A stretch of DNA of 43,882 nucleotides from Psammoneis japonica. Its lineage: Eukaryota. The stretch spans positions 1 to 43,882 of the forward strand of contig QPGO01000348.1 in NCBI GenBank assembly GCA_008632985.1. Reading direction: 5' to 3'. The notes beneath the pieces were generated by a model. It was given only the letters and a program-made list of their open reading frames with translations. It did not search any database and was not told the origin of the DNA. Position numbers and translations under genes: made by a program. This document shows, one piece after another, positions 2,104-31,190 of this stretch (its first letter is position 1; the number at the start of each line of letters is the position of its first letter).

Positions 2104-3869
2104 CTAGCTGAAAGATTCCCCCTTTAGCACCTCCACTGACGTCTCTAACTCCGTTTCATTCACCTGCTTGCTCACACGGATCTTCTCGTCGACAGCACTC
2201 TCTGCGTCACGAACAGATCCGGTACTCTCCAAGGAATGAGCTTCCGCAACAGCTTCCTCCCATGACGGAATCAAGGACAGAATAAACACCGCAATCAGAA
2301 AGAATGCTTGCAACGCCAAGATGCCATATTTCTGATCCACGTCATTGTCCACTAAAATACTAAAAACGAGCGGAGGCAACCAACCCAAGATTTGTGTGCA
2401 GTAGACGTAAAATCCCGCCAGCTCTGCTTCTTGCCCTTTCGGGAGCAACATGGAAAAGAAAAGATTCTCAACCGGATAGAACCAACCGAGACAGAGACCA
2501 ATCGACGCACCCCAAACATAGGCAATGGCCTTTCGACTGGGATCCAAGATGAAGGCACCCACAATGGCAACTGCGGCCGTAGTAAGCATGTTGGCGCGCC
2601 AAGATATACTCGGATTCGTCTTGCTCGTAATGTAGGCTCCCAGCTTGGATCCCGGCAAGCTAGCAATGAGCGCCAAGAAAAAGAAAATTCCAATTTCGCT
2701 ACCACTCAATTTGATTTGTTCGTCCAGGAACGTTACAGCCAAAACGGTAAATGCATTGACTGCCGACTCGGCAAAGACAAGCGCCAGATAGAACCATCGC
2801 AACGAGTTGGCATACTGTTTCCAAATGTGCTTTGCGGTATGCCAGACCTCCACAAAGGACTGTCGAAAGAGCGTACATGTCGTATTCTTGTTGCTGCTAT
2901 CTTGAGGCAATTTGTGACTGGCTGGTACATTGGGCATGAAGCGACCCCATCCAATAGCAAAGAAGGTTCCGCTGTAGACTGTGTTGAAGGCTTGACCCAA
3001 GTGGCCCGTCTGCACATCACTGAAATCGAATGCAAGACTGATTCCCGTCACTACAATCAAGAATAACGCCTGCGATGCAAACTGCACCATGGTAAAGGTC
3101 GCTTGGACTACGTAATGAAAGAAAGGAAAAAGCATGTAAGATAGGTAGAGGGGTTTCAGACGCACGAACGATCGTAGCAAGACACATTGTCATAAACATG
3201 AGCTGCTTACACTGCGTCATGACGGTTTCTCCGACATCCTTGGCAATTTCGGGAAGATAGGCATAAGTAGCGAGAATCTGTATCTGGTAAAAGAATCCAT
3301 TGATTGCTTGCAGAATCGACATGGCAAACCAGGTAGAAGAGACCGTGCCAATCTGAACGGCTTGAATGAGCATCATGATAATTGCCACGACTATACCAAT
3401 CCTTCGTCGATGGGGTGTGTAGTCAACAGCGGCCCCAAAAAAGGGCATGAAAAAGGCACTGAGCAGGCCAGAGAATACGGCGATATTGGCAATCAGTGTT
3501 GCTGGCTTTTGTCCATAGACTCGTTCATTACAATCATCAATGATTTCATTCTTTTCATCGAGACATCCTGCTTCTTCAGCGGCAAGGTAAATGAGAGCGC
3601 TTGCTAGAAAAATGTTACTCATGACGAGAGCCCCGCGGGCAATGCCAAGCTATACAAATGAATCAGGAACAGGAAAGAGTTAGAAGTCATGAGAGACATG
3701 TGCGGGACGTAGAAAATCCATCGAACAGTCGTTTGTACTTTTCACTCACAGTACAGTATCCCTTGGCCTTAATATTGCCTTGAAACTGACACCACCCAAA
3801 CAGCTTGGATTTAAATGTCCCGCTACTACTAGACGGGGCATCTGCTGGTGCATCGGTCGTCATTGACAT
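2104..3869 (-). CDS. MFS transporter, UMF1/Atg22-like; 3 exons
   Basis: Multi-TM ORFs joined in frame by GT-AG introns at 3650-3749 and 3108-3210. Motifs PFFGAAVDYTPHRR, YAYLPEI and LLPKGQEAELAGFY. Confidence 0.85.
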
Positions 3870-3989
3870 GGTTTCTTTACCGCGTTCAGCTTATGTACTG
3901 TCCAATGTGGTTTGATTGAAAAACAGGGGGAGATACCGGTCCCGGTTCTTCCAATGTTTTTCTTTCAACAAACACGGTAAATAAATTCA

Positions 3990-6290
3990 ACGTGCTTGCT
4001 TTGTGCTTTTGTGTCACGTGTCACGCATCGTTCAACGTTCTCGCGTTTCTGTGCTGTCGCAATCGTGAATCGTGACAAATTTCAATCACGGTTTGATCGC
4101 GCGAGCATTGGATCGTCTGTCCATCCAACGATCAAATCCTTCCTTTGTCTGCTTGCACACAACATTGTGATTCAACTCGCGGGACGTTGATCCCGCATCT
4201 AACAGTTGCACCTTTGTGTTCAGCAGCGTTTGGTTGAACTGGTTGTTGCGTGCTTGCTGTGGGATTCTTGTGCACCCACAACATGAGAAAAACATGCTGC
4301 TGTGCGAGCTCAGCAGCTTCCCCCAGCAGAGCGCACTTGCAGCTTTGGCTGGCCACCCCAGCGCTGTTGTGCAAAGCACTTTTGACTGAGCAGCAGCTCA
4401 CCACTTTCTCGTGTAACAACTCTTCTGTGTCTTTCAGTGCACAGATGCTGTTGTCAGTGTGCCAAAGTTCTTGTGTGCTCCTCCCACACTCTGTGCCTCT
4501 CTCTGTCAGAGTGCTCCTCCAGCGCCGCAGCTGCGGCTTCACCCCCCGACTGCAGCGCACGTGTTTGGAGGATTTCCACACTGAAACTTCAAAGGCCAGC
4601 ATCATCTTGCCAGTGTCTGGCTCACCTTTGATGACAATGTTTGGCTGCACTCGGCATGGAGATTTGCAGGTCATGTGATGCGATGCAATTGGAGGTTCCG
4701 GTGAGCTGCAGTCAGCCAAAGATTGTTTTTAGGATGTTGGTCCAATTTGGGATGTGGAGCTGGATGCCCCCAATTTAGCAAAGAAACTTGACTGCACCTT
4801 GTTGCGCTGCTTCATTTTTGGCAAGGTGCTGGGCATCCCACATGCTCAACAATCCAAAGCTGAGCAAATCAAGTGTCAAAAAGAACATGCAACCACAATT
4901 GAAAAGGCCATGGCGAGTGATGAAAAGCATTGATGTGGATGACATGATGGCTGTGTGCCATGAAGGTGATGTGATGCCACAAAAATCAACTTCTTTTCAG
5001 GCAAAAATGGTCTCAGGGTTGTTTTTTGCCTCTGTTGACGATGCTGAAAATGACCCCCCCTTCACAATTGCCTCGAAGTCACCCCAAACAAAGCAGCAAC
5101 TGCTCACTGATCTTGGCTGTGATTTTGAAGTCATTGGGCACAAAGTTGGTAAAAGTGTCCTCAAGGGCATGCCCACAAGCCACTCTGCAGCTTGCTTTGC
5201 TGAGCCAAAGGTGAGTGCCTTTGCCAACGTGCCAGCAAAGCTGGTCACTGCCATGGACACCATTGTCTGTTTGGGAGCAACTGTTTTGGGCAAACTCCAA
5301 TCCTAGAAAGAGGCCATCAAGAGGATCTAAAGCTCATCTGATCAATTTCATGAGGCCATTGCCAGGGTTTGCTTCACATGGAAGGAACGAGCACACAGTT
5401 TCTCAGAAATGAACAAAGCATTCTTCTGACTTGCCCCAGACTTGGGTGGCATGCACGTGCCCCTTTTTGCCAAAAAAAAACAAAAGTTTTGTGCTTTGTT
5501 CAACATGGCCAACATTTTGTCAATGTGATCACATTGACAGCTTTCAAGCAAAACAAACAGATGAAATTTGAGCCAAGAATTGGCAGCCAAAACGACCATG
5601 GCTTTCAGCAACCATGACGGCCCACTTTTTTCAACCCAACGTGAAAAATTGAATGGCTCCATTTTGTGCAGCCTCTGTCTCATCAGTGACAGCAATGAAA
5701 ATGCTTGTTGCAGGCTGCAGCACAGCACAAGAATGCAAATCTGTCAACAACAACAATTTGGTCTCATTTCATTCATGCAACTTGCCTCTGAGGACTGATT
5801 GTTTTTCATTGCGCCACATGTGTTCCCTCCACATCATTGACTGGCAAAAGTGCTTCAGTCATTCATGTCAACAAAGCCGTGAAAAGATCTAAAGTTGACG
5901 CCATTGCACGGGCTGACTTTCATTTCTTCTCATGCTTTCAAAAAAAATCACTTGTCAACGAATGTTTTGTTCAATCCATTGAGGGCAACTTGTGTTCACA
6001 CAAGTGCACAAAACATTGCTCATGTTTTCTTCAAGATGAGTGGGCTTGCACATGAGAACATCATGTTTGCTTTGTGTTTTCACCTTCGTGTGAGTGCGAT
6101 CTAAAATTGCTCATGGGAAAACCGAGCTCTCATCTTGCGGCACCATTTGACGATCAACAATTTGGTCCATCCACAGTTTTGAGCACACACGCATGGTTGC
6201 ATGCACGAGACCTTTTGTGTGCTCAATTTGGTTTTGCCCATTTGGGGATCCCCCAAAATGGCAAGGGCAAGGGGGGGGAGTCATTGATGA
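3990..6290. mobile_element. TpA-depleted degenerate block A (unclassified element or gene relic)
   Basis: Only a handful of TA dinucleotides in ~2.3 kb, strong TG/CA excess, no intact gene. Contains a decayed Walker A-like motif at ~4600-4640 (-). Confidence 0.55.
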
Positions 6291-6805
6291 GACGGACTAA
6301 TTTAACAGGAGACTTACAGTGTTTAAAATCACAATTTCGAAAAAGAAAAAACACGTTTGGGAGAAAAAATGAAGACAGTGTAGAAATGCATGACACGTCA
6401 TAAATCCTTAGTCATCCACCATCTTTAATTCAATACAATTTATTATTTTATATGTGCATTAAAAAAGCACTATCGATAAACAACATTTAGTCTTGCGTTT
6501 AACACTCGGCAAATAATAACTTTGACATGAAATATGCTCTTAAAATTACCGTTCAAAATCAAAAACGAAATTTAGCTAGCAATGTTCGCCCGTTCAACGG
6601 TCGCTAAGAAGTCAGGCGTTATTCCTGTTAAGTAAAGGGTGCGTCAGCGACTAATATGATATACTGTATCTCAAGCAAAAATTTAAAAAATCCAAAAATT
6701 GCGGCGCGGGAGTAAAGAATGCCAGGGCAACAAACGACGAACAACCACATTGACATGAATATCCACTTCTCATAAACTTTTCATGGCCTCAAATTGAACG
6801 CAGTC

Positions 6806-8040
6806 ATGGATCCGCCTTCAGAAGGCGTCCCTATAAACAATAAGGGCGGGTCCCCGTTCAGAATGGTGAAAAAGAAGCCACTGGTTGCCTCAGTATTTGT
6901 TGCAGTGGCTGCCATCGTTGCCATTACGGTTGTCGTCGTAAAGAGTGGTCCGCAAACCAACGGTCAGGTGTCTTCAGCATCCGGGACGGGACCGATAACG
7001 CCTGCCCCATCGGTGAGCATTTCCCCATCCATCAGCCCTCAACCCACCTCAAGTCCATCAATATCTCCAGCTCCTACTCAGGAACCTTCGGCATCACCAA
7101 CCGCCACGCCGACTGCGAAACCATCCGCACATCCTTCCTTGGAACCGACTATCTCCATCGAGCCCAGCTTGGAGCCCTCGGTCTCACCTTCTCAAGCCCC
7201 TTCATATGTTCCAAGCACGTCTCCTTCTGTTGCGCCCACCATTTCAAATGCACCGACAGAATTTCCGACCTTATCGCCGTCGGCCGAACCAACTGAATAT
7301 CCAACCGTTTCCCCTTCCGCCTCACCCACGATATCGAATGCTCCATCGTACGGTCCCATTGATCCTGATTTTGAGTTTCGACTCAAGTTGCATTGGCAGA
7401 AAAATTATTTCTGGCAGGAATCTAAAAGGGAGGAGAGGTACTGTTTGGAGTGCATGCAATGCACCCGGCTGAACTTTGACCAGTTCCCGCCCCCTTGCCG
7501 AAGAGCTTCGTGTAGACACAAGCGGCAGTTATGGATCTGGGACTGCGGTGGTGGTCGAGGCGAAGCCTTTGTTGTCAGGTATGTGGGAGACTATATTCAA
7601 CTGAAACTCGCTGATGAAGATTTATGTATGACTCGCTACGACAAGAAGATTATTACAATTGAAGACTGTGATCGAGACAGAAAGGATCAACAATGGAAAC
7701 CAATCACAAGGTACGGCAGGTTTACCATTGAACCGGCCAGAAGGGGGAGAGACGATGAAAGAGACTACTGCGTAACTCAGCACCATCACCCAAAGGTAAG
7801 AAAGAGTACCGCCGCTGTTCGCAATAGTTCTTATACCTTCCTCTAACAAGACTGTCTCGTCGATGTTACTCAGAACGGAGAACCAATTGGTTTTCATAAT
7901 TGTGGAACTGCCTATAGGGTAAGAAGTAGAGTAGAACGGACGGATTTCTTGTTTTCTCACTATACAGCTCACTTCATCACGGACTATTCTTTTTTTGTAC
8001 ACAGCATGAGACGGTGTACTGGAATGCTTATAGACTTTAA
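6806..8040 (+). CDS. Membrane-anchored Pro/Ser/Thr-repeat protein with C-terminal ricin-B-lectin-like Cys-rich domain; 3 exons
   Basis: N-terminal TM segment after KKK, PSxSP/PTxxP stalk, then FRLKLHWQKNYFWQE..CLEC..DQQW..CVTQHHHPK. GT-AG introns 7796-7873 and 7919-8004 give NGEPIGFHNCGTAYR-HETVYWNAYRL*. Confidence 0.75.
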
Positions 8041-8229
8041 CAGCCCATGCAGGGGTTTCCGATACTTGTGCTAATTTTAGAATATTTACCTTGACTGAAT
8101 ACTGCCGTTCCTTCTGCACAGCGACCAAAAGTTGCATTGTATCACTGCTTCGGTATTGATGCAGGATAATTGTGCATAGAGAGTTGAATTCTGATGTTTG
8201 ATGTATACACACATTTGCGTTTAACTTCA

Positions 8230-11200
8230 TTGACAGAAGGGATTCGCAACATTTTTGACCAGAGTTAGGCTCCTTTTGCCCAGCAGAGCAGACCTGACCC
8301 TTTCAGGTGTGATGGCACCGCACCTTCGGTGATGGACACATTTGTGCTGTCGATTTCCTCTCATTGAGAGAATGACCTCCTTGTGAAAGCTAGAAACATG
8401 CTTTATTTTGCTCCCTTCATCAAGTCTCTGCTTTCTTTGACATCCAAGGACATGTTTAACCGGCAGATGAATGCATTGAAGCCAATTTGCAGCACAAACA
8501 TTCATCACTGGGCTGCACCAAGGCCATCAGCATGAGACAACAGTTTGACACCATTGGTGAGGAAAGCAAGAGAAACAAATCTTCCGGCTAAAATTTGTTC
8601 ACTGCTTTCAATGCTCAAACCAAAAAGCAACAAATGTTGTCACATTCTCATCATGTGATGAGAATGTTCAACAAGTTTCTTGTGCAATCGCTTGCTTTTC
8701 CCTGCCTGGCCACATGCTGCAAAAAACTTGTGCAAGATTTCAGGTGCAATGTCTCCATTGGTGGGGGTGGTCAGTTCAGAACTTTTGTCAACCACCATGA
8801 AGTGGAGTCACTTGTCCAAACATCAAAATGGAGAAACATGGTTGCAGTGCAGAAGCATGTCACCCAGTTTTTCTCTCAATTGCCAGTCCTGCCAAATGGA
8901 TCCTAAAAAGAGGGAGCAGAAGGAGGGAGATGTCAGAGTGGCAGCAGCTGTGGTGTTTGCATCATCATGATGTGCGAAAATGAAAAGTGGAGAAAAAACC
9001 AACCTCACCTTCAAGACTTGGCTCAATGCACCATGAAGAGAGTGCAGAAATTTTGAGGCTGCAGTTGTTTTTTCTGTTTTGAAGATGATTTCATTCAATG
9101 GACAAGAAGGGTTAGCCTTGCACATGTGGAGTGCAGGGTGTGTCGCGCCACTCATGAAACTGAGCAAGGTTGGGAAGGGCAAGACCTGGGTCACTACCCT
9201 GCATTGCAATTGTGCAAAGAAACAGCATGGGTGCAAGCAATCTCTGACAACAAAATGGGGAGATTGGCTCAAAAGGAAGCCATGGTGGCAAGCTCTTGTT
9301 TGATGTCATTTCTTGTTGTGTTGTTTTTTTTGTGTGCTCTGCACCAAATGTTGTGCCACCTTCAATGACTCATTTGGGGCAAGCTTGTTGACAACAGTCT
9401 GCTCCATTGTTTTGAGTGATCAAGAGTGGCTGAACAATTGGGAAATCTGGCTGCCAAGATGGAAAAAGCTTTGGCTTTCCTGCCAATGTGAAAGCCTTGG
9501 AAACACAAGCAAAGTGATGTGCATGTTCTCAGCAGCAGATCTTAAAGTGGCTGCACAATCAAAACCCACATTTTGTCAACACATGCTGTGCCAAGGAAGG
9601 AAGCCCAAAAGCCCCAGTTCTGACTCCATGCAAACTGCATCAATTTTCACAAGCTGAGATCAAGGCAACTCAGCTCTTCTTGAAAAATTTTCTCTTTGAA
9701 ATGGCAAGGCAAGGTTGAGGCAACAAATTCACCCAAGTCACTCACAATGGAGGAACTCTGCAGCAAGTCACAAGAAGAAGCATCAAGCACCATCACTCCA
9801 GCTGGTAGAAAATTCATGATGCAAAAGTCAGTTTGGCCCTCTCTGTGAGACATGCTGGTCATTGACTCAAGTTGCCACAATTGACTCTCTGCAGCTTGAC
9901 CTGAAAATGGGGCAAGAATTGCTGCTTTTTGCTGGCTTCTCTCTTGGTGCACTTGCCAACACCCTCCAATGTCTGTGTGCCATGTGTCGCAAGGTGTGCC
10001 CAAACCATTTGTGCTGGACAATGCTGTTGAGTTGCACACAGGTGCCAACCATGACAGCACAGTGTGAAAAACTGCATGCATGAGAAAAATGTGGCAACAC
10101 TGAGACCAAAGGGCACCAATGCTTTGAATGACCCATCATTGGGCTCATGACTGCCAGAAGGTTGTTGTGCTGATGGATCTGCGTGCTGTTTCTTGCTTTT
10201 TTTGCAACAAAGCACTTGCTCTAGATGCAAAAGATCTTTGCAAATGAGCAGATGGCATTTTCTTCTTCTGTCAAGAATGAGCAAAGCACAACTGGGCACA
10301 GGCAAGGAAGATGGTGGAGGAAGTGGGGGAAGCACTTGGTTCACCAAAAAGGCACCAGAAAGGAGTTCTGGGATCTGCCACAGCTGAAAAGAAGCAAACA
10401 TTGAAGCAGTGGCTTGGGTGGCAAAGGTGATGGCAACAATGCCTTGTTGGCTGTGTTGGGGCTGAATGATCTCACAGATTCAGACAGCAAGCTCAAAAAG
10501 AACCCAGACATGAAACAAGCATGGTTTTTGGTGGAAAATCTTGGCAAAGCACTGCTGCATCAGAGGCTGCAATGCAGTGATCATCACATGTGCTGTCACA
10601 GTGATTTTCATTCCTTTCACAGTTGGCATTTTTGCAGTTTCAAACCTCATTGGTTGTGCAGCTGGCAACAAATTTTCATCTGTGACAGTCAATTAAATTT
10701 GCTGTGGAGACATCTTTTTAACTGCAAGAAATCAACTTTAACTTTCTAAAAGCCCCCTCTTTTCACACATTCTTCATGTGCCTTCCTCCACTGCAGAAGC
10801 TGAAAATTAACATCATCAGTTTGTTTCATGTCACACGCCAGTTTTTACATTTAAAGTGATGATTGCAATGAATTCAGTCCACTCTTCTCAATCAACAGTG
10901 ATGTGTTGCTTTTGCTTTTTAACATTGATCATCAATTGACACTGAGCAAATGCTGCGGTGCCGGTTCTTCCACATTTCCAATTGGCTCACACTGGAGTTT
11001 TACATTCTTTGCTTCCGTTGCTTTCTTCTTGGCTGGCTCTGTTGTTTGCAATTGTGCTTTTGAGCTTGGGACCAAACAACTCCATTCCAAAACCATTGGC
11101 AAAATGTTCCATTTTGTCAAAATCAACCTCATGTCGGGAAATTGGAAGGAAGGATTGGGGTCAACCTCATCATGGGATGGGGTAAAGTCATTGACTGCCA

Positions 11201-12350
11201 TGGCAAGAGGTCAGTTGTGATTTGCATGGAATGCACGTGGATCACAACAGCGCATGCTCAGGTCAAATGCAGTTTGGGGAGAGGATGCACTGTTGTGAAT
11301 GCACAGACAATTGCACATGTAGAATGAGTGCTCGAAGCCGGGTGGAGAGCCATGCACTGAAATTCTGGGAGGTGCTGGAAAAATGAGGCAGGAAATGCAC
11401 ATGGGGGTGACTTGGGCACAGAGGACACACCAGACACTGTGGCGGGGCATGCACACAAGATGGAGCCATTGAAAACAACAATCAAAGACAAGATTGCAAA
11501 ATGGGTGCAATGTTGTTGTCAAATTGCAATGTGTGAAAATCAAGCAAAGGATAAAATTCAAATGGGTTGCCAAAAACAAACAAAAGCAAACAGGCAACAA
11601 AAGTCCCCAAACGCATCTGACAAAGGCAGTGTGTCATTTGCTTTTACAGTCAAAAATTACAAACAAAAGATTGACACACACAACGTTGATTGGCACAAAT
11701 CACACAAAGAAAATTGAACACCATTGTGTTGCGGCCTCTGATGTGGATGAACTCAGCTTTTTTTTGCAGGTGGCTGAAGCTGAAGGTTGCAGACTTGCCA
11801 CGCAAGGAAGCCTGACCTTGTGAAGAATTTGACAAAGCTTGACATTGGGCAGATGACCCCAAAATGCACCCAATTGGCTTGCCAAGTTGCCACTTTTGCA
11901 GTGCTCCCATGGAGGCTGCAGCCCAAGCCAATGCCTTGGTGTGGCCTGCCCCAGTGCATTTCTCCCACCATTGCAGTGCACCTCAGTCTCTCCATCAATG
12001 CTCTGGGCAAGAGAGTGGATGGTTGCAACAGCATTGTTTCTCTCAACAAATTTGATTTCTGGATCCATCACACCCACCATCAACTTCTTGAGTCCGACCT
12101 TGTGATGAAGCACTTGCAGCCCGCAAGAAAAAACTGTGAGAAATCACAAACAAATGTCACGCCCCAAGTGCCCCATCGCTGGCATCATCATAAATGGGCC
12201 CAGGGCACAGACGATGTCGTGAAAAAAAGGCGAACTCGTAAACGTCAAGTCGTGACACCTGCAACAACGTCAACACATCTCTCAAAACGAAGATCAGAAC
12301 AATGCCCGAAGTCTCAGCCCGCAGGAAGAGTGACGTGTGACGACTCCTCA
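8230..12350. mobile_element. TpA- and CpG-depleted degenerate block B (unclassified)
   Basis: ~4.1 kb with very few TA or CG and a TG/CA excess. Only short Cys/His/Gln-rich, Tyr-poor ORFs; no recognisable domain. Confidence 0.5.
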
Positions 12351-12575
12351 TCTCTATAGACATGCGTGTTAAAAAAGGCATAAGGGGAGGTACACTGTAC
12401 GGTACACAACATAGGGCCCTCTACTAGAGAGCTACGACTAGCTCTAGCTAGCTACTAGAGAGGTAGAGCCAGATCAGGGGTGAGTCGGACCGACAACAGC
12501 AGAAAAAACTCCGTTCCACAACACTCGCAGTCAAACTAAAGGTCAAATGCTCATGCTCAAATGATGCTCCTCTCA

Positions 12576-15500
12576 CTAATAATCAAACCCAAAAGCACGA
12601 AACATCTCAAGGTCGTAGTCGAAGGACATTGAGTGGGACATTGAGTAGGACATCGAGTAGGACATCGAAAAATCAAAATCCGAGCCAAAATCACCAAACA
12701 TCTCAAGGTCGTAGTCGAAGGACATTGGGTGAGACATTGAGTATGACATCGAAAACTCAAAAGTCGGTGCCATGGTGGGAGTTCGCGTTGGGGATGGTGA
12801 TGGTACTTGGTTCACGGTGAATGCTTGCGCAGAACCGCGGAGTTAACGGCATTTGCATCACTAGTCGGTGCACCAATCGCGAGAAAGCTTCCGTCCTCCG
12901 ACAAGGAGACCGACCCTCCATACCCTCCAAAACGATCAAAAGAATCCGTGCCATTTATAGGAGAGCCCACTTTCTCCCACATGTCAATACTTTCGTCGTA
13001 TTGAAAAATGGTAACTTGACCCGCTTGTTGTATTCCAGTGAAGCTATGAAGAGGACTAGCAACCGCAACAACATTTCCATTTCCAGCCAAAGAAACTGAT
13101 CGACCAAACCCATCGCCTGGTTGCTCACTAGTTAGCACACCCAGCAACAACCAATCCATTGCCGCATCGGAATAGGAGTACACAAAAACCCGGCCTTCAG
13201 CACCTACGGCCAGTATCAAACCACGGTCATCGAGAGAAACAGCTTGTCCAAGGAAACCATCAGTGGCAGTTCCTACGATTGGACCCCCCAGCAACTCCCA
13301 TGACGTGCCGTTGTCTTCATACACAAATGACCCACCAACGTCGTCTCCTGTAAAATCTCGATAATCCGGGGCGCCAATGCAAACAATTGTTCCCAAGCCA
13401 TTTAATGAGACTGAAGAGCCAAATTCAGAATTGAGCTGCCCGACAAGCTCCTGTCCATAGCGGTTCCAGTCCGTGCCATTGAACCGAAACACCCGAACAC
13501 TATCGCCGTCCAACGTCCTATAGCAACGGTATCTCCGTCATCTGACAGAGATGTTGACCACCCAAAATCTCCTCCCGGTACAGAAATATCGCTGCCGCGT
13601 TGGTCCCAATGTTCCTTGGAATTAAGTTCATAAACTCGAACGATTTCAGCTCCTGATGCTCCAACCGCAAGCACAGTTCCGTTTCCATTCAAAGATACAG
13701 ATCGACCAAAGTCATCTATATTGGAATCTCCAGTCAAGATTTGACCAAGTTGAGTCCATCCGTTTACTTTCAAAGGTGCGGGGAGCCCAAAACCCAAATC
13801 AAAATCGGCATCATTTGGGTCATCAAAGCGATAAACTGACACATAACCCGGTGCAGCACGCAAAGCTTGCCATGCTCCGACTGCCATGATACGTCCATCG
13901 TTATTGGTCGAGACCGCGGTTCCAAATTCATCGTCTTCACCAATGCCGTTCAGCGTCTGCCCAACTTGCTGCCATGGAACATTGGGCAAAAGTGCATTTG
14001 GAGTTGGAGCTATGGATGGTGCCGACGAAGGTGCCAAGGATGGCACATCACTTGGTTTCAACGAGGGAGCTGTCGTGTAGGACATTGAGTAGGACATCGA
14101 GTAGGACATCGAAAAATCAAAATCCAAGCCAAAATCAAAAAACATCTCAATATCGTAGTCAAAGGACATTGGGTGGGACATTGAGTAGGACATCGAAAAA
14201 TCAAAAGTCGGTGTCATGGTGGGAGTTCGCGTTGGGGATGGTGATGGTACTTGGTTCACGGTGAATGCTTGCGCAGAACCGGCGGAGTTAATGGCATTTG
14301 CATCACTAGTCGGTGCACCAATCGCGAGAAAGCTTCCGTCCTCCGACAAGGAGACCGACCCTCCATACCCTCCAAAACGATCAAAAGAATCCGTGCCATT
14401 TATAGGAGAGCCCACTTTCTCCCACATGTCAATACTTTCGTCGTATTGAAAAATGGTAACTTGACCCGCTTGTTGTATTCCAGTGAAGCTATGAAGAAAA
14501 CTAGCAACCGCAACAACATTTCCATTTCCAGCCAAAGAAACTGATCGACCAAACCCATCGCCTGGTTGCTCACTAGTTAGCACACCCAGCAACAACCAAT
14601 CCATTGCCGCATCGGAATAGGAGTACACAAAAACCTGGCCTTCAGCACCTACGGCCAGTATCAAACCACGGTCGTCGAGAGAAACAGCTTGTCCAAGGAA
14701 ACCATCAGTTGCAGTTCCTACGATTGGACCCCCAGCAACTCCCATGACGTGCCGTTGTCTTCATACACAAATGACCCACCAACGTCGTCTCCTGTAAAAT
14801 CTCGATAATCCGGGGCGCCAATGCAAACAATTGTTCCCAAGCCATTTAATGAGACTGAAGAGCCAAATTCAGAATTGAGCTGCCCGACAAGCTCCTGTCC
14901 ATAGCGGTTCCAGTCCGTGCCATTGAACCGAAACACCCGAACACTATCGCCGTCCAACGTCCCTATAGCAACGGTATCTCCGTCATCTGACAGAGATGTT
15001 GACCACCCAAAATCTCCTCCCGGTACAGAAATATCGCTGCCGCGTTGGTCCCAATGTTCCTTGGAATTAAGTTCATAAACTCGAACGATTTCAGCTCCTG
15101 ATGCTCCAACCGCAAGCACAGATCCGTTTCCATTCAAAGATACAGATCGACCAAAGTCATCTATATTGGAATCTCCAGTCAAGATTTGACCAAGTTGAGT
15201 CCATCCGTTTACTTTCAAAGGTGCGGGGAGCCCAAAACCCAAATCAAAATCGGCATCCTTTGGGTCATCAAAGCGATAAACTGACACATAACCCGGTGCA
15301 GCACGCAAAGCTTGCCATGCTCCGACTGCCATGATACGTCCATCGTTATTGGTCGAGACCGCGGTTCCAAATTCATCGTCTTCACCACTGCCGTTCAGCG
15401 TCTGTCCAACTTGCTGCCATGGAACATTGGGCAAAAGTGCATTTGGAGTTGGAGCTATTAATGGTGCCGACGAAGGTGCCAAGGATGGCACATCACTCGG

Positions 15501-18500
15501 TTTCAACAAGGGAGCTGTCGAGTAGGACATTGAGTAGGACATCGAGTAGGACATCGAAAAATCAAAATCCAAGCCAAAATCAAAAAACATCTCAAGATCG
15601 TAGTCAAAGGACATTGGGTGGGACATTGAGTAGGACATCGAATAATCAAAAGTCGGTGTCATGGTGGGAGTTCGCGTCGGGGATGGTGATGGTACTTGGT
15701 TCACGGTGAATGCTTGCGCAGAACCGGCGGAGTTAATGGCATTTGCATCACTAGTCGGTGCACCAATCGCGAGAAAGCTTCCGTCCTCCGACAAGGAGAC
15801 CGACCCTCCATACCCTCCAAAACGATCAAAAGAATCCGTGCCATTTATAGGAGAGCCCACTTTCTCCCACATGTCAATACTTTCGTCGTATTGAAAAATG
15901 GTAACTTGACCCGCTTGTTGTATTCCAGTGAAGCTATGAAGAGGACTAGCAACCGCAACAACATTTCCATTTCCAGCCAAAGAAACTGATCGACCAAACC
16001 CATCGCCTGGTTGCTCACTAGTTAGCACACCCAGCAACAACCAATCCATTGCCGCATCGGAATAGGAGTACACAAAAACCTGGCCTTCAGCACCTACGGC
16101 CAGTATCAAACCACGGTCGTCGAGAGAAACAGCTTGTCCAAGGAAACCATCAGTGGCAGTTCCTACGATTGGACCCCCCAGCAACTCCCATGACGTGCCG
16201 TTGTCTTCATACACAAATGACCCACCAACGTCGTCTCCTGTAAAATCTCGATAATCCGGGGCGCCAATGCAAACAATTGTTCCCAAGCCATTTAATGAGA
16301 CTGAAGAGCCAAATTCAGAATTGAGCTGCCCGACAAGCTCCTGTCCATAGCGGTTCCAGTCCGTGCCATTGAACCGAAACACCCGAACACTATCGCCGTC
16401 CAACGTCCCTATAGCAACGGTATCTCCGTCATCTGACAGAGATGTTGACCACCCAAAATCTCCTCCCGGTACAGAAATATCGCTGCCGCGTTGGTCCCAA
16501 TGTTCCTTGGAATTAAGTTCATAAACTCGAACGATTTCAGCTCCTGATGCTCCAACCGCAAGCACAGTTCCGTTTCCATTCAAAGATACAGATCGACCAA
16601 AGTCATCTATATTGGAATCTCCAGTCAAGATTTGACCAAGTTGAGTCCATCCGTTTACTTTCAAAGGTGCGGGGAGCCCAAAACCCAAATCAAAATCGGC
16701 ATCATTTGGGTCATCAAAGCGATAAACTGACACATAACCCGGTGCAGCACGCAAAGCTTGCCATGCTCCGACTGCCATGATACGTCCATCGTTATTGGTC
16801 GAGACCGCGGTTCCAAATTCATCGTCTTCACCACTGCCGTTCAGCGTCTGTCCAACTTGCTGCCATGGAACATTGGGCAAAAGTGCATTTGGAGTTGGGG
16901 CTATGGATGGTGCCGACGAAGGTGCCAAGGATGGCACACCACTTGGTTTCAACGAAGGAGCTGTCGATGGAGATATGGATGGTGCCGACGAAGGTGCCAA
17001 GGATGGCACATCACTTGGTTTCAACGAGGGAGCTGTCGATGGAGAGGGAGTCGGACTCGGGGTTGGAGCAGGTGTAGGTGACGGTGTAGGCGCTGGAGTT
17101 GGGCTCAAGGTCGGTGATGGAGTGGGTGAAGTTGGACTCGGCGTAAGTGATGGATCGGGAGTCGGACTCGGGGTTGGAGCAGGTGTGAGTGACGGCGTGG
17201 GCGCTGGCGTTGGACTCGGGGTTGGAGAGGGAGTAGGCGACGGTGTAGGCGCTGGAGTCGGGCTCGGGGTCGGTGATGGAGAGGGAGTCGCACTCGGGGT
17301 TGGAGCAGGTGTAGGTGACGGTGTAGGCGCTGGAGTTGGGCTCAAGGTCGGTGATGGAGTGGGTGAAGTCGGACTCGGCGTCGGTGATGGAGCGGGAGTC
17401 GGACTCGGGGTTGGAGCAGGTGTGAGTGACGGCGTGGGCGCTGGCGTTGGACTCGGGCTTGGAGGGGGAGTAGGCGACGGTGTAGCCGCTGGAGTCGGAC
17501 TCGGGGTCGTGATGGAGAGGGAGTCGCACTCGGGGTTGGAGCAGGTGTGGTTGTTACCGTTGGAGCTGGAGTCGTCGCCGTCGTAGGAGCGGGTGTAGTT
17601 GCTACCGTGGGAGCTGGAGTTGTCGAAGTCGTCGGAGCGGGTGTGGTTGCCACCGTGGGAGCTTGAGTCGTCGAAGTCGTCGGAGCGGGTGTGGTTGCTA
17701 CAGTGGGAGCTGGAGTCGTCGCCGTCGTAGGAGCGGGTGTGATGGCAACCGTGGGAGCTTGAGTCGTCGCCGTTGTAGGAGCAGGTGTGGTTGCTACCGT
17801 GGGAGCTGGAGTCGTCGCCGTCGTAGGAGCGGGTGTGGTTGCTACCGTAGGAGCTGGAGTCGTCGCCGTCGTAGGAGCGGGTGTGGTGGCAACCGTGGGA
17901 GCTGGAGTCGTCGCCGTTGTAGGAGCGGGTGTGGTTGCTACCGTGGGAGCTGGAGTCGTCAAAGTCGTAGGAGCGGGTGTGGTGGCAACCGTGGGAGCTG
18001 GAGTCGTCGCCGTTGTAGGAGCGGGTGTGGTTGCTACCGTGGGAGCTGGAGTCGTCAAAGTCGTAGGAGCGGGAGTGGTTGCTACCGTGGGAGCTGGAGT
18101 CGTCAAAGACGTAGGACTGGGTGTGGTTGCTACCGTAGGAGCTGGCGTCGTCGCCGTCGTCGGAGCGGGTGTGGTTGCTGCCGTGGGAGCTGGAGTCGTC
18201 GCCGTCGTCGGAGCGGGTGTGGTTGCTGCCGTAGGAGCAGGAGTCGTCAAAGTCGTAGGAGCAGGTGTGGTTGCTACCGTGGGAGCTGGAGTCGTCGCCG
18301 TCGTAGGACTGGGTGTGGTTGCTACCGTAGGAGCTGGCGTCGTCGCCGTCGTCGGAGCGGGTGTGGTTGCTGCCGTGGGAGCTGGAGTCGTCACCGTCGT
18401 AGGACTGGGTGTGGTTGCTAACGTAGGAGCTGGCGTCGTCACCGTCGTAGGACTGGGTGTGGTTGCTACCGTAGGAGCTGGCGTCATCGCCGTCGTCGGA

Positions 18501-20209
18501 GCGGGTGTGGTTGCTGCCGTAGGAGCAGGAGTAGTCGCCGTCGTAGGAGCGGGTGTGGTTGCTACCGTGGGAGCTGGAGTCGCACCCGTTGTTGGCGAGG
18601 GCGTGCTTGCAAAAGAGGGGGCTGGCGTGACCGAGCTGGGAAAGGGAGTAAAGAAGCGGCTTGGAGCCGGAGTGGCCATCGCAGTTGGGAACACCGGAGC
18701 TGGCACGAGGTCTTCGACGATCAAGTTGCTTTCAATGTTTTCGACAAGACCACTTTCACGCAATATCTCAATCGTCTCTTCAAAGGCGGACTGGAATTCC
18801 ACTTCGTCGGGCGCTCGGAGTTCAGCATCGATCGGACAGAAACACGTGCCGTTGAGAGTGCTGTTGGTCTGAAGTAATCTCGGTTCCTCCATCCATGGCG
18901 GTGATTCTTGTAGTAACCGTCGACCACTAACATCATCAAAAAGGTTGGACCGGGAGGAGCAGCCACGACAACGTCCGGAACTCCTGTAGAGCCACGAAAA
19001 GACTCGACGTCCTCCATCAACAGGAGCTAATGTAGGCGCAGAGGTCGGCGGACGGGTCGGTGGAAGGGTTGGTGCACGAGTCGGTATCGGGCTGCCACCA
19101 CCAGCAGGAGGTAGTGTAGGTGGTGTTGTAGGAGAATCCGTGGCGGTGGGGTTCTGATCGATCTCGACAGAGTCGAGCACCCTGAATAAAATGTCACAGA
19201 TTTCGCCATTCAAGGCATTAAGGTTGTTGTAAGTGACAAGATAACCATCCTGTAAAGCCACCAGTTCACCTTGAGTAATTGCACTTGGATCGCCCGTATG
19301 GGTGACTGACACAACGGATTCAAACAAGGTTTCAGGGCCACAATCGACAGGCTCCAACTCGTACACGGCATCGGCTGAGTCCACATTGGTGAGGATATTT
19401 AGCGTTACGAGTCCTTCGATAACAGTGTTGAACGTCTCCAGAAAGTCTTCAGCGAACGGAGCCACACATAGACACTGATCTTCATCTTGTCGAGCTTCGA
19501 CAGCGAAATCAACTTCTTCGTCAATGGTGAGCTTGGACTTACGAGTCCTTGAGGACTTGCGTAGCTTTATCATGCCAGCCTTGGGGTCTTCTTCAGGGTT
19601 CTTCTTGGTAAGCAATAAAGATCGGTCCGACTTGCGTCCCTTGACGCCTCGTCTTGGTGCTTTATTTTCTTGATATCTGGTGAATTTGGAGTTCGAGAGT
19701 TGTCTCTGTGTCCCATCGATGGTAAGAAAAAGCCGAGAATCGCTGGTACATCCAAGGCAGCGTAAGAAAACTCTGTAGAGATAAGTAAACTCAACGCGAA
19801 TGTCGTCCGTTTGCCTTGTTGTTACAATTCGACGAGCAGCATTTTCTCCGACGGTAAGTCCAGAGTTGATTTGTGTCTCAATAGTTACGTTGTCAATAAC
19901 TCGAAATCCTCCATCATTGCCGCAAGAGTTTCTAGCGGTTTGATTATAAGATGTCGCAAAGGCATCTTGAAGAGCCACAAGCTCTTCATCTGTAACGTTG
20001 AGTGGCTCACCCGTGTGCTCCACCAAAAGGAGAATCTCAAGCACTTGTTCGGTCGCATTGTCGCACGGACTGGCTTGGAGACCTCGTCTTCGGAGGAAGG
20101 ATTGCTTGCTCTTCTTGGTTGCAATGGAAGCGGTTACCTGTGGCAAATGTTGGCATGCCAAGAATAGGGCAAGGATGGGAAGCACTCGCCTCAATGAATT
20201 GACGATCAT
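12576..20209 (-). CDS. Giant (~2,500 aa) secreted mucin-like protein with three 7-blade FG-GAP-type propellers; four apparent 1-nt frameshifts
   Basis: ATG 20209 gives signal peptide [19 protein letters not shown], then two Cys-containing domains, a TTPAPT mucin tract and 3 x 482-aa units with 7 FG-GAP-like repeats each. ORFs 17342-20365, 14718-17345, 13402-14745, 12812-13513 and 12576-12815 join if single bases are restored at ~17508, ~14730, ~13517 and ~12837, as the sister repeat copies indicate. Confidence 0.8.
12631..16966 (-). repeat. Three near-identical ~1,446-bp coding tandem repeats
   Basis: The same sequence recurs at offsets 1446/1445/1444 (e.g. 16547, 15101, 13656) with only scattered differences. 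Confidence 0.95.
17040..18585 (-). repeat. Coding minisatellites: 24-bp TTPAPT(V/T/A)A units (~17545-18585) and 12-bp TP(S/A)P units with a ~240-bp higher-order duplication (~17040-17520)
   Basis: Recurrent GGAGCTGGAGTCGTCGCCGTCGTA / GGAGCGGGTGTGGTTGCTACCGTG on the + strand. Confidence 0.95.
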
Positions 20210-22136: not shown

Positions 22137-22384
22137 GATCTTTAAGTGAGGCCTGGTCCCCAAGACGGTGAAGAGTGCAGAGGAGGGCACTACTGTACTG
22201 TACCGTACTAACTACCGAATGAAACGGCAAATGGCCTAAAAGAGCCTTATGACATCCAACGCACGCACCGGAGTGCAGTGCTTGTGGCCATCTGCTCTCT
22301 CCTCTAGCTACTCTTTACTCTGGCTAGCTAGAGCAGCTGCTAGCTAGAGGGATTACACCAGCTAGAGTGGCCATGACAATTAGC

Positions 22385-24350
22385 CTGTCATTGCTGATGA
22401 TGACAGACGATGTGAGAGGCACGCAACAGTGCAGTGCGTGAGGCAAGACCAGGCGGCCTGCGAGGTGGGCAGGGCCGAGGAGGTGACATCAGCGCAACAG
22501 GAAACAAAATCAACACCAACAATTAAAAAAAAAACAGTGTGATTTTGACATGCCATCTGGCATGCAGCTCAGAGTTTCTCTGTTGGTGCTGCTGGCCATG
22601 GTTTGACAAGAGCTGGCACGACACAAGTGGCTCTCCTCGCACAAACATTTTCTTGGCTCTCACACAGCGTGAGAAGATCTTGCTGCATTTGTGTGGCAAG
22701 CACATCAAGGCAAGCTTTTGCATTGGAGCATTGTGCTCAGGATGTCAGCAAAACAGTGTGCTCTGAAAGAACTCATTCCTGTTTTTGTGTGTGAGAAGCT
22801 TGTGAGGGGCTGAAGGCAACAACGGAGATTTGGTTGAAGCAAGCAGCTCTGTTTTTGAGGCCAACACATGGGAACAGTGCATGATTTGTGCTTTTCCCAA
22901 TTCTTGGCAATGCTGGCTGACATTGGAGAATGTCCTCTGCTTGGCACAAAAAGAAAGAAAGCCACAGCTGCGCCCCCAAGCTTGGCATCAAAACTGCTGG
23001 GTTGGAGCTGCAAAAAAATCCAGCAGCAGCACCAGTTGAGGGAGAATCTCATTCTCCTGGTGCACTTGCTGCCAAGACAATGTGGTCAAAAGAGTCAAGT
23101 GTGCAGCCCCAACAGCAAACAAGAAAGTGCAGAGCCAGCTCATTTGTCAAGCCCCAAAAATTTCATCAAAAAAGACATTCCAAAACAGAGAGCTGTGCTG
23201 TCTTGTGTGCTGGAAGCTTTTGACAACCTCCTTGCCATGAAAAGTCAAACTGTGCAGCAAGGGTGTGGCAGCTTGAGATGAAGTGGCAGCCCAAACAACG
23301 AGCATCAGGCCAGACGCAATGAGGGAGTCATTTGTGGTTTGTGGCCAAACTCTCTTGGAGGATTCAATGACATGTGATGGTTGCATGCAGGAGAAGGCAG
23401 ACGGGCAGATGCAATGAGGGGGTTGTTTGTGAGCAGCCAAGGGCAGGTCTTGGAGGACTCACCATGCAATGGTTGCACAAGAGAGAAGGCAGACAGGCAG
23501 ATGACAGCAGTTTGCAGAAACTTCTTCTCCTCATTCTTGGAAGATGTCATGATTGGTGGCAATGGGGCGAGCTGTGGTGATTTGCCAATCTCAGCTGTTT
23601 CAAAAAATCTGCTTTGTTGCCATGCTGCAGGATTTGAAGAATTTCTCCACAAGCCAGCAGATTTTAGCTGCACAGTGCTCCAAAAAGCTTGCTTTGTTGT
23701 TTCTGATCCATCACATCAGAGCACAATCAATGTTTTGTGTTGGCTTTGCTTGATCAGCCTGCTGGCCATGAAAAAGAGCTCACTGGCCATTCTCATGTTG
23801 GATCTGCTGGAGAGTCTCTGCCCACCTGGAGTGATTGCATGAACAAATGCAACCTTGCCACAAGCTTGTGATGCACAATTTTTTGTCAAGCAATGTGGCA
23901 GCATGAGCTGCTTGCTGAGATCACAGCATCAAAGCAAGCTCACATCAGGAGTGCTCTTTTCTCATGCTGCCAAGAGTCAGATTCTAAATCTAAATTCTGG
24001 GCTGCAGAATGTGAAGAGAAGGCTTGACAAATTGCACTCAAGCTGGGAGAGTTTTTTTTTGCAGAAATGCGGTGTGATGAAGAAACCCAACTGCAGCAGT
24101 GCTCCACAATTTCCAGAGAGAAAAATGAGCTGTCAATGAGAATGATGTGCTCTGTGACAAGAGCCGCGCCAATGCCCTTCCTCCATGTGGCAAGCAAAAG
24201 AGATTGATGAAGAGCGAGCCACTTGCCGCAGGGAGCAACAAACATTTTGTGTGTTGCATCCTCCTGGAGAGAGCGGCGCATGATGTGCATGATGTGGACA
24301 ATGTGAATGATGATGGTTCAGCTCAGGTCTGCCATTTTAAATGCATGGGT
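22385..24350. mobile_element. TpA/CpG-depleted degenerate sequence upstream of the Copia element (block C, left part)
   Basis: Almost no TA, TG/CA-rich, no intact ORF; contains a ~95-bp tandem duplication. Confidence 0.5.
23311..23503 (+). repeat. Degenerate ~95-bp tandem duplication (2 copies)
   Basis: CAGAYGCAATGAGGG..TTTGTG..GCCAA..TCTTGGAGGA..CATG..ATGGTTGCA..GAGAAGGCAGAC.GG recurs at 23311 and 23406. Confidence 0.8.
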
Positions 24351-24359
24351 TGTTTGGTT

Positions 24360-24553
24360 TGTGAGATGTCCCTCTGACAGACATCCGAGATGGGGAGTGC
24401 ACTCCCTTGTGTCGGACAGACCAGCACAGACAGCATGGAGAGATCCGATGATCTCTCCTTTGCTCACTTTCTTTCTCATCTAGCACACGATTGTCATCTG
24501 TCCTAGATGTCCATTGGATTGTCCCGATGCCGCTAGTCCGCAAGGTCATGAGC
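24360..24553 (+). repeat. Putative 5' LTR (~24360-24542, TG...CA) followed by a PBS-like GGTCATGAGC (24544-24553)
   Basis: Lies ~190 bp before the gag ATG. GGTCATGAGC differs by one TA->CA change from the GGTTATG(A/G)GC internal tRNA-iMet primer site of some Copia elements. No 3' LTR is present to confirm the boundaries. Confidence 0.4.
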
Positions 24554-30500: not shown

Positions 30501-30670
30501 TGTGATTCACTCAAGCGCATGGCCAAGCATTTGCGGCGTGCCAAACATTGGGGACTGATGTGTGAGAAGTCCAAGCGCGATCCCGGTCTGCCTCCTCGTG
30601 ATTTCAAATGGCTTGAGGATGACTCATCTCTCCCGGACTTCCCTCGTGCTGATGACCTTTTCCAACTTGC
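24360..30670 (+). mobile_element. Degenerate Ty1/Copia LTR retrotransposon (CoDi-like), truncated before RNase H
   Basis: Order is gag (from ATG 24745; zinc knuckle CVFCGNNHSFHEC ~26600), protease (QIDTGA ~27220), pre-integrase/Zn finger (LWHQRLGH..CPAC), integrase (VDFAF, VDQGGELY, GPVERSH), then RT (LKRALQGHPEAG, QVDDF ~30050). INT before RT indicates Copia. Several frameshifts and a stop at 29766-29768. Confidence 0.92.
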
Positions 30671-31190
30671 AAGAGTGGTTGAATCACTTTTGGTGGACAA
30701 ACATGTTGCAGCTCCAACTGCGCTTGTGTGTGCTGGTGTGTCAGCTGCCTTGGTGGCACGTCTCATGTGCAATGGGCAGGAGCAGGCATGAAGCTTGTGC
30801 AAGAACCACAGCCTCTCCCCATTGTTGGGGCATCATTCAAGTGCACAAAAACCTTTTTGGTGCAAATTTGATGGCTTCGCTGCACAAGAGTCCAGGGGTG
30901 GTTCGAGTGTGGCTGCAAAAAGTGAGAGAGCGCCAGCGTGCTTGCTGCTGCGTGCGCTGACAATTGATTGGGACAAAGGAGAAAGACACAAGAGATCTTC
31001 ATTCTTTTTTCAAGGACCATCATTGCGTGCCGTGATTGGAGAGCTTTGGCTCATCTTTACTCCACCATGGTAATCGAGTTTGTTGAGCGATTTTTTGTTT
31101 TGTCACGAGGGCATGCGTCTCTACAGCACAGTGGAAAATCAAAATTGCCGGTGGCACACCCCGACAAGTGTCAACAGCCAAAAACTTCTT
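30670..31190. mobile_element. TpA-depleted non-Copia sequence (block C, right part)
   Basis: Copia similarity stops abruptly after ..DDLFQL, while TA depletion continues to ~31190. Confidence 0.45.

Follow-up and report, generated by a model that had tools for sequence, protein, structure and literature searches.

The best parallel to the mutational pattern described here comes from the chlorarachniophyte Bigelowiella natans. According to the available part of the preprint that describes it (Mettrop et al., 10.64898/2026.01.13.699255), the mutation rate of two integrated viral regions is, in mutation-accumulation lines of this organism, about 1000-fold that of the remaining genome; 230 of their 231 mutations are A to G or T to C changes, all at TpA dinucleotides and in some of the lines only, and an ADAT2-like DNA adenine deaminase is the proposed enzyme. 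To date, this organism and this one 2026 preprint are the only demonstration that integrated DNA can undergo hypermutation restricted to TpA. Our literature searches found no report of TpA loss in diatoms. The present analysis concerns a stretch of 43,882 nucleotides (the window) from contig QPGO01000348.1 of the diatom Psammoneis japonica, which contains four blocks (A to D) that are almost devoid of TA, and more particularly a TA-free but CpG-rich segment at the left edge of block A (rim A). The window probably records a hypermutation of the B. natans type together with a separate decay of CpG, rim A lying inside the territory of the first process and outside that of the second.

The likeness with the integrated nucleocytoplasmic large DNA virus (NCLDV) and virophage DNA of B. 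natans, as far as the available text of the preprint describes it, extends to several features. The changes are almost exclusively TpA to TpG or CpA, they occupy discrete regions surrounded by a normal genome, and both single-copy and repeated DNA are hit; TpA-depleted clusters are enriched in CpA and TpG, and reverse transcriptase and DDE domains are enriched in them. The effect is heterogeneous in both cases, among lines there and among copies here, which is an analogous observation and not the same measurement. Nevertheless, B. natans is a rhizarian and the present host a stramenopile; the loss is nearly complete here (TA observed/expected ratio, o/e, of 0.06) against 0.45 in the NCLDV region; and the targets are not giant-virus inserts but a long terminal repeat (LTR) retrotransposon, pseudogene fragments and DNA of unassigned origin. 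In addition, TA loss coexists here with CpG decay, whereas CpG, diatoms and boundaries go unmentioned in the available B. natans text. The preference of the process for certain flanking bases and its independence of strand were measured in the present study.

Other known systems resemble the pattern in part. In the repeat-induced point mutation (RIP) of ascomycete fungi, dinucleotide-specific transitions also inactivate mobile DNA with a strong skew and sharp borders, and there is some leakage into adjoining sequence. Yet in RIP it is C that becomes T, chiefly at CpA, which makes TpA and raises the AT content, while here TpA is destroyed and GC is unchanged, so that the logic of RIP is inverted. 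Moreover, RIP requires duplication, whereas here tandem units are spared and single-copy blocks are hit. The deamination of 5-methylcytosine fits the second signature of the blocks (CpG o/e 0.12-0.44, a gain of TG and CA, and Arg codons turned into Cys, His and Trp), but it cannot remove TpA, and the territory and degree of CpG loss differ from those of TA loss; the TG and CA excess in the blocks is shared between the two processes. As for the substrate of such a decay, the portions available of two studies report that diatom transposable elements are CpG-methylated by DNMT5 (PMC9998398) and carry H3K9me2/3 and H3K27me3 (PMC4504042). The animal ADAR and APOBEC3 enzymes likewise cripple retroelements through deaminase-type transitions, and ADAR acts preferentially where a U stands 5' of the edited A (cited in the available part of 10.64898/2026.01.13.699255). 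However, they edit RNA or cDNA before integration and on one strand, whereas here both strands are affected equally and independently, also in DNA that is not retroelement-derived. To our knowledge, ADARs are metazoan.

Direction and specificity of TA loss

The blocks contain 65 TA in 15,888 bp (o/e 0.06), whereas the remaining 27,994 bp of the window hold 1089 (o/e 0.59). The CpG o/e is 0.33 in the blocks and 0.93 outside, CA and TG reach 1.66 and 1.76 in the blocks against 1.19 and 1.17 outside, and GC is 0.45-0.54 in the blocks versus 0.485 outside; the block limits used for this comparison were slightly narrower than the coordinates in Table 1. The longest TA-free run of the window measures 1141 bp (22524-23665, block C). 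TA depletion is uniform over the four blocks (o/e 0.05-0.08), while CpG o/e spans 0.12-0.44, and the two are uncorrelated among 30 in-block bins of 500 bp (rho = 0.18, p = 0.35). TA and CG are both depleted in the core of block A (4200-6101; o/e 0.06 and 0.31) and in that of block B (8458-12094; 0.08 and 0.12). The body of the Copia element in block C (24990-30791) is nearly free of TA (24, o/e 0.07) and keeps 164 CG (o/e 0.44). An earlier reading of the window, made from its sequence alone (the sequence-only reading), had described both the cores and the Copia body in these terms. In four introns next to the blocks, 27 TA remain over 367 nt, and the spacers have TA o/e values of 0.4-1.2.

The direction of the loss can be read from the degenerate Copia element. 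It is 51% identical to diatom Copia proteins, its best named relatives being those of Nitzschia and Cylindrotheca (about 50%), and 94% of the length of its open reading frame (ORF) at 27717-29768 can be aligned with intact Copia proteins of diatoms. In the 14 columns where Tyr is conserved, the window copy has six His (CAC/CAT), five Cys (TGC/TGT) and one each of Tyr, Trp and Phe. Other conserved residues were mostly kept (Pro 33/39, Gly 24/28, Trp 8/9), except for Arg (13/32, replaced by His, Cys and Trp among others) and Ile (7/19), whose losses are expected since their codons contain CpG and TA, respectively. Tyr makes up 0.4% of this ORF, against 1.6-5.0% in 68 of 69 homologues. The codon replacements indicate that TA was lost from the blocks by mutation to TG or CA. 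The removal of TAA and TAG stops leads to long spurious ORFs in the blocks which, together with the removal of all Tyr codons, could mislead gene callers. Separately, a 549-residue Copia homologue from a JGI metagenome (P0034) has no Tyr at all and a raised Cys content (2.9%), and constitutes a further fully TA-erased copy, from a data set unrelated to the window.

The process was also followed among related elements. A profile scan of metagenome contigs yielded 80 related Copia loci with TA o/e of 0.15-0.81. One family comprised 51 of them, with 81-92% nucleotide identity to a reference copy; 11 near-identical loci were dropped and 40 were aligned, and since L076 and L039 share 19 of 19 fates they represent the same copy, which leaves 39 independent copies. 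TA loss was polarized against the majority state of the family. The proportion of consensus TA lost ranges from 2% (L026, L063) to 78% (L079, L076). In L079, TG or CA replaced 38 of the 43 TA that disappeared, with no excess of transitions away from TA (49 of 1578 sites; in L026, 43 of 1364); double conversion to CG amounts to 0-1 per family copy. At equal background divergence (about 4%) and equal CpG loss (22%), TA loss can be 2% or 78%, and the most-hit copies show ordinary CpG loss (15-30%) and a background divergence of 4-6%. In terms of hits per site, L079 received about 1.5 at TA, 0.25 at CpG and 0.04 elsewhere.

These data bear on the proposal of the sequence-only reading that two processes operate and that TpA conversion is the faster one. 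The existence of two processes is upheld by the uniform TA and variable CpG depletion of the blocks, by the lack of correlation among bins and by the contrasting TA loss of equally divergent copies; the greater speed of TpA conversion holds for targeted copies, as the hits per site in L079 illustrate. When TpA loss is set against CpG loss for each of the 39 metagenome copies, as the same reading had proposed, the two are uncoupled in the most-hit copies, although a weak correlation exists overall.

The conversions appear on both strands. A given ancestral TA has become TG or CA about half the time each in different copies, so the events are independent. The strand choice of adjacent sites is independent as well (143 same-neighbour pairs versus 143.7 expected), and no strand patches or processivity were found in the family copies. 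An overall strand bias is seen in L079 only (30 TG to 8 CA, p = 5e-4), 10 of 11 copies having no significant bias. The flanks of hit metagenome copies have a normal TA density. At three such ends of partly hypermutated copies (L079:1-900, L065:3500-5112 and L046:6900-7467) TA density is normal again at or slightly before the end of the family homology; in L079, a TA-poor, CpG-rich segment of 200 bp lies past a TA-rich flank of 600 bp. No LTR pairs were found in eight metagenome loci within the sequence covered.

The bases that surround TA influence its fate. In the family, CTAG (8 of 41 converted) and CTAA (3 of 14) resist conversion, while GTAT (25 of 30), GTAC (20 of 26) and ATAT (16 of 21) convert readily, ATA and TAT being the sensitive contexts. 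The survivors in the window blocks are of the TTAA, CTAA, GTAA and CTAG types; ATAC, ATAT and ATAG are absent from the blocks and number 324 outside, and TAT-type classes are missing among surviving block TA in two counts (0/65 and 0/73). The context preference is common to the window and the family with the exception of TTAA, for which the family offers five sites only.

The blocks are also present in other data. Logan contigs of the DNA run X1 reproduce block A with 8 differences in 3224 bp and block B with 11 in 2181 bp; this run may be the assembly's own sample, while the metagenome data are independent. The X1 contig that covers 2500-5723 has its seven listed differences all within block A, while its gene part has none of them, and among the 40 differences listed between X1 and 2500-12499, 14 are exchanges between CG and TG or CA and eight touch TA; in these listings the diversity of X1 clusters in the blocks and at both hypermutable dinucleotides. 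Duplication does not act as the trigger, since three tandem units of 1445 bp in the FG-GAP gene, 94-100% identical, have a normal TA content and single-copy blocks are hit.

Rims and the offset of TA and CpG boundaries

Rim A measures 217 bp and holds no TA and 20 CG (CpG o/e 1.63, GC 0.48). The nearest TA are at 3982 and 4200, which leaves a gap of 218 bp, whereas the longest of the 1080 TA-to-TA gaps outside the blocks is 171 bp, and at none of 27,247 outside positions is the next TA 180 bp or more away. Rim A is the strongest of the rims. The sequence-only reading had noted the stretch 3991-4199 as lacking TA and having many CG, a description that is correct, both strings that it quoted being present.

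Rim A is single-copy and immediately upstream of a transcribed gene that codes for an ATG22/MFS-like protein. A contig of run X2 covers this gene at 2500-3107, 3211-3649 and 3750-3925, with intron ends GT..AG on the minus strand; as X2 contigs skip GT..AG-bounded intervals, this run behaves as cDNA, though it is labelled 'DNA?'. The two introns keep 8 and 5 TA. The start codon is at 3868 and the last covered base at 3925, so that rim A spans 58-274 bp past the latter on the promoter side. With its first base 58 bp past the observed end of the transcribed sequence, rim A lies in promoter territory. Blocks A and B have no cover in X2, an observation on which no weight is put.

Including rim A, five rims of 125-217 bp were found (Table 1), among them one at the right edge of block C (30878-31057) that is additional to those of the sequence-only reading. 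The further rims which that reading had listed were borne out at 12192-12354, although with one TA, and at 34602-34726, while 22382-22523 is TA-free but not CpG-rich. CpG-rich rims are in fact restricted to A-left and D-right (o/e about 1.6), C-left and C-right having 0.65-0.71. D-right is the most CpG-dense (probability of at least as many CG, P = 0.002). Pooled, the rims amount to 827 bp with one TA. They hold 63 CG, when the frequency outside the blocks would predict 45 (P = 0.007), and 145 CA plus TG, when 121 would be predicted if no TA had been converted and 154 if all had (P = 0.02). Taken by length, the rims of 125-163 bp are within the range of ordinary TA-free gaps, 22 of the 1080 outside gaps measuring 100-171 bp and six of these having a CpG o/e of at least 1.1. 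Nevertheless, the probability that the next TA is at least 125 bp away is 0.004 per outside position, and the rims are improbable because each one continues a block. They are real extensions of the TA-free state.

Boundaries were determined at the eight block edges through single change-point fits for TA and CG separately, with 2-lnL support intervals. The TA density shifts more than tenfold at the change points, whose support intervals are 0-146 bp wide. The CpG boundary is inside the TA boundary at six of the eight edges. The supports are disjoint at A-left (TA change point 3983, support 3983-4028; CG 4561, support 4186-4737) and at B-right (TA 12355, support 12311-12355; CG 12095, support 12051-12212), and the offset is borderline at D-right (TA 34727, CG 34592). 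At B-left, C-left and C-right the TA and CG supports overlap, and at A-right and D-left both boundaries coincide or are reversed. Four of the five rims (A-left, C-left, C-right and D-right) face the 5' side of a gene, and the rimless edges B-left and D-left face gene 3' ends.

Clusters of a CTAG palindrome, GCTAGCTAG and CTCTAGCTAGCTACTAGAGAG, are found at 12430-12465 and 22300-22375, just beyond the rims of blocks B and C. When one mismatch is allowed, the 9-mer occurs 19 times versus 2.7 expected, and CTAG is also the most conversion-resistant TA context. These clusters could be a promoter or boundary motif.

Evolutionary scenarios for the blocks and their rims

Any scenario has to account for the direction, specificity, context and copy-to-copy heterogeneity of the TA loss, for its confinement to blocks and for the offset of boundaries at some edges, all of which the data demonstrate. 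In the scenario that we propose, four silenced and degenerate blocks would have lost nearly all their TA to a transition process aimed at TpA, in which the A of 5'-TA-3' would become G on either strand, giving TG or CA. By analogy with B. natans, the block pattern would be the long-term footprint of a region-limited, TpA-only hypermutation, and its chemistry may be the adenine deamination on DNA that was proposed there, with a comparable enzyme presumably present in this diatom. The decay of CpG to TpG or CpA would be a second, slower process with a territory of its own, probably the deamination of 5-methylcytosine, as suggested by composition and by the diatom literature. Rim A would then be the gene-proximal edge of block A, on which the first process acted and the second did not: one or two nucleosomes beside the promoter of the transcribed gene may stay unmethylated, or CpG-containing motifs may be selected. 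It is at least an even call, and perhaps slightly better, that the rims belong to the hypermutated domain and that CpG was spared in them near promoters, an explanation which we favor over the spreading of the process beyond the repeats.

Several observations weigh against this scenario. The TA and CpG boundaries are clearly separate at only two of the eight edges, and three edges have no rim. Rim B-right is turned towards the 3' side of the FG-GAP gene, and the rimless edge A-right faces a 5' end across a TA-rich spacer of 448 bp; the association of rims with promoters (four of five rims versus one of three rimless edges on 5' sides) is not significant and only suggestive. Rim A could be placed neither as element nor as native promoter: residues 1-315 of DUF1015, of which the C-terminus is found in block A, were sought in the six frames of 3700-4750 with no match better than E = 3, and no DUF1015 remnant was detectable in 3983-4747. 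Since blocks B and D have no identified origin, the term foreign DNA is unproven for them. The two LTRs of the window Copia were not found either, a transition-tolerant Smith-Waterman comparison of the expected 5' and 3' LTR regions scoring 133 against a shuffled mean of 143 (sd 12). Among the 39 family copies TA loss shows a weak correlation with that of CpG (rho = 0.37, p = 0.02) and also correlates with other divergence (rho = 0.55, p = 3e-4), which implies that age contributes besides targeting and that the processes are not fully independent of age. Finally, in the single-copy X1 contig over 8484-10664, three of the 11 differences touch TA (9195 TA to CA, 9868 CA to TA and 9114 TA to TT), and these few sites are the only hint of in-situ action in this diatom.

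Alternatively, the TpA process could overshoot the repeat by about 100-250 bp into native flanks and promoters, CpG methylation ending with the repeat. The presence of rims at five of the eight edges would be explained in this way, as would the single-copy status of rim A, its position directly upstream of a transcribed gene and the lack of detectable element-derived homology in it. There is also a precedent in B. natans, where, according to the available part of the preprint, the authors extended the hypermutable region about 21 kb past the annotated virus by mutation rate alone (10.64898/2026.01.13.699255). Yet the TA depletion of the metagenome copies ends at or before the end of the family homology and their flanks are TA-normal, three edges of the window blocks have no overshoot, and an overshoot is not measurable in the window since the true element ends were not located. 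This makes spreading a distinctly less probable explanation, though one to be taken seriously. The suggestion of the sequence-only reading that TpA conversion reaches wider than CpG loss is thus retained only in part: the rims exist and the CpG boundary tends to be the inner one, but the offset is clear at two edges only, and the sparing of CpG fits as well or better. An extension of the same idea, in which diatoms and perhaps the SAR lineage (stramenopiles, alveolates and rhizarians) would possess a DNA defence that deaminates adenine at TpA in silenced DNA, is guided by a signal from chromatin or small RNA independently of cytosine methylation, extends one or two nucleosomes past the methylated domain and rewrites the promoters of active neighbours, the rims being remodelled host promoters, is rather doubtful at present.

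The place and moment of the mutations could also be different from those of the hypermutation of integrated DNA. If retroelement RNA or cDNA had been edited by an ADAR- or APOBEC-like activity before integration, the copies would have arrived TA-poor and their CpG would have decayed after insertion. The best-characterised targets are indeed Copia elements, and L079 is strand-biased. Nevertheless, the sense strand of the window Copia has six CAY and five TGY and most other copies are mixed likewise, neighbouring sites choose their strands independently, and the pseudogene fragments of block A, which are not retroelements, are equally TA-free; moreover, a copy without Tyr codons could not propagate by itself, and the closest known system, as described in the available B. 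natans text, acts in situ on integrated DNA. Editing before integration is therefore improbable. We consider somewhat more unlikely still that TpA is hypermutable throughout the genome, the blocks being old neutral DNA at equilibrium and selection keeping TA elsewhere. TA is under-represented outside the blocks too, and its loss among copies tracks background divergence, as this would require; but introns and spacers at most a few hundred bp away from the blocks keep the TA levels given above, TA loss differs 40-fold at equal background divergence, and at the sharp boundaries a shift in density of more than tenfold takes only tens of bp. That the rims are ordinary TA-free promoter or genic stretches which contain CpG and happen to abut blocks is very unlikely as well. 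Comparable gaps do occur outside the blocks, three rims measure just 125-163 bp and one has a CpG o/e of only 0.65, yet TA-free distances of this length are rare or, from 180 bp on, absent outside the blocks, while rims were seen at five of eight edges and show an excess of CA and TG when pooled. As for errors of base-calling or polishing at modified bases of the assembly, a symmetric modified site would yield a mix of TG and CA, but X1 reproduces blocks A and B, although possibly from the same sample, and the same conversions exist in metagenome assemblies of other studies and, according to the available B. natans text, in Illumina mutation-accumulation data, so that an artefact is hardly credible. 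Two further mutational routes were ruled out: Pol-eta-like mutagenesis at WA, as AA is not depleted (o/e 1.32 in blocks, 1.18 outside), and a cascade from TA through TG or CA to CG as the source of CpG-rich rims, given the scarcity of double conversions.

With in-situ TpA hypermutation as the favored scenario, the window and the metagenomic Copia family would indicate the TpA signature in diatoms, a major phytoplankton group for which genetic tools exist, where it acts on retrotransposons and to near-saturation. The offset between TA-free and CpG-poor territories offers a handle on the guiding signal, be it methylation, histone marks or other, and bears on whether the process reshapes promoters adjoining silenced DNA. 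TA o/e would be a simple genome-wide marker of such regions, and CpG o/e inside them a separate clock.

Contents of the blocks and neighbouring features

Table 1 Coordinates of the TA-erased blocks, their rims and associated features in the window
Feature	Coordinates	Strand	Description
Block A	3983-6297		TA-erased, CpG-poor, CA/TG-rich; o/e TA 0.05, CG 0.44, CA 1.75, TG 1.78
Block B	8223-12354		TA and CpG nearly gone; o/e TA 0.08, CG 0.14, CA 1.81, TG 1.83
Block C	22382-31057		Composite: older CpG-poor left part and degenerate Copia element
Block C, left part	22524-24336		CG o/e 0.16
Block D	33241-34726		TA-erased, CpG-poor; o/e TA 0.06, CG 0.16, CA 2.08, TG 1.75
Rim A (A-left)	3983-4199		Left edge of block A; TA-free, CpG-rich
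Rim B-right	12192-12354		1 TA (at 12239), 12 CG, CpG o/e 1.15 (outside level)
Rim C-left	22382-22523		0 TA, 7 CG, CpG o/e 0.65; faces 5' side of ankyrin-repeat ORF
Rim C-right	30878-31057		0 TA, 8 CG, CpG o/e 0.71; 167 bp upstream of sulfatase ORF
Rim D-right	34602-34726		0 TA, 16 CG in 125 bp, CpG o/e 1.56; faces start of unassigned ORF
Ty1/Copia gag-pol, degenerate	24990-30791	+	Five stop-to-stop ORFs; Pfam gag_pre-integrs, SH3_retrovirus, RVT_2
Pseudogene fragment in block A	4748-5378	+	DUF1015 C-terminus running into Maf-like N-terminus
ATG22/MFS-like gene	2104-3925	-	Pfam ATG22; spliced X2 contig; TA content normal

The genes of the window, which is nuclear DNA of a eukaryote, are compact and poor in introns; among them are those for the ATG22/MFS-like protein, a sulfatase, G6PD, a nucleotide-sugar transporter, an ankyrin-repeat protein and a giant FG-GAP repeat protein. 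The best named relatives of the G6PD ORF are all from diatoms (55-66% identity). An Rfam scan of the window gave no match.

The contig depth in X1 shows that block A is mostly single-copy (about 60), with 1000-1100 in its multi-copy bins at about 5506-5839 and 6174-6507. Most of block B is also at single-copy depth, its multi-copy part being at about 10516-11517. In block A, a word-based protein search with the Maf-like ORF found no match, while a HMMER search with it gave 14 matches and exposed the DUF1015 fragment. The latter (4748-5084) corresponds to the C-terminal ~120 residues with one frameshift, and was recognized by a hidden Markov model of five DUF1015 proteins with E values of 4e-19 and 1e-14. 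The Maf-like N-terminus (5055-5378) matches Pfam Maf PF02545 with E = 5e-6 and 26.7 bits, for a cut-off of 27, and tblastn is a further source of evidence for the fragment as a whole. The two parts are in frame with each other, either fused or contiguous, and could derive from a bacterial-type gene pair or from a fusion gene. Only two conserved Tyr columns exist in the DUF1015 and Maf fragments, reading Ser and Gln, and they are uninformative. This non-transposon content implies that the targets are not transposons alone. The view of the blocks as repeats, held by the sequence-only reading, is suited to the Copia element of block C and to the multi-copy pieces, and less to block A, which is mostly single-copy and contains host-like or bacterial-like pseudogene fragments.

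Among 82 ORFs of at least 70 residues from blocks A, B, C-left and D, Maf was the only Pfam family matched; weak matches (E = 0.01-0.03) to SIR2, SAP30, DUF4215 and UVB_sens were discounted. The 32 such ORFs of block B have no Pfam match at E = 0.001 or better and block D has no credible one. No direct or inverted repeats link the blocks within the window, and a search of the window for 22-mers in a purine/pyrimidine alphabet gave seeds at chance level only.

The FG-GAP gene (12580-18900, minus strand) contains a 64% GC array of 24/48-bp repeats, and is highly duplicated with normal TA and CpG content. A pocket of block B (10690-11000) keeps eight TA, all of them in TTAA, TTAC or CTAA, belongs to its multi-copy part, with a contig depth of 600-1300, and may be a younger nested insertion. 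Within the TA-free part of block C, the segment 24386-24866 is CpG-dense, with 24 CG in about 480 bp; it lies just upstream of the Copia gag region and may be the 5' LTR or leader of the element.

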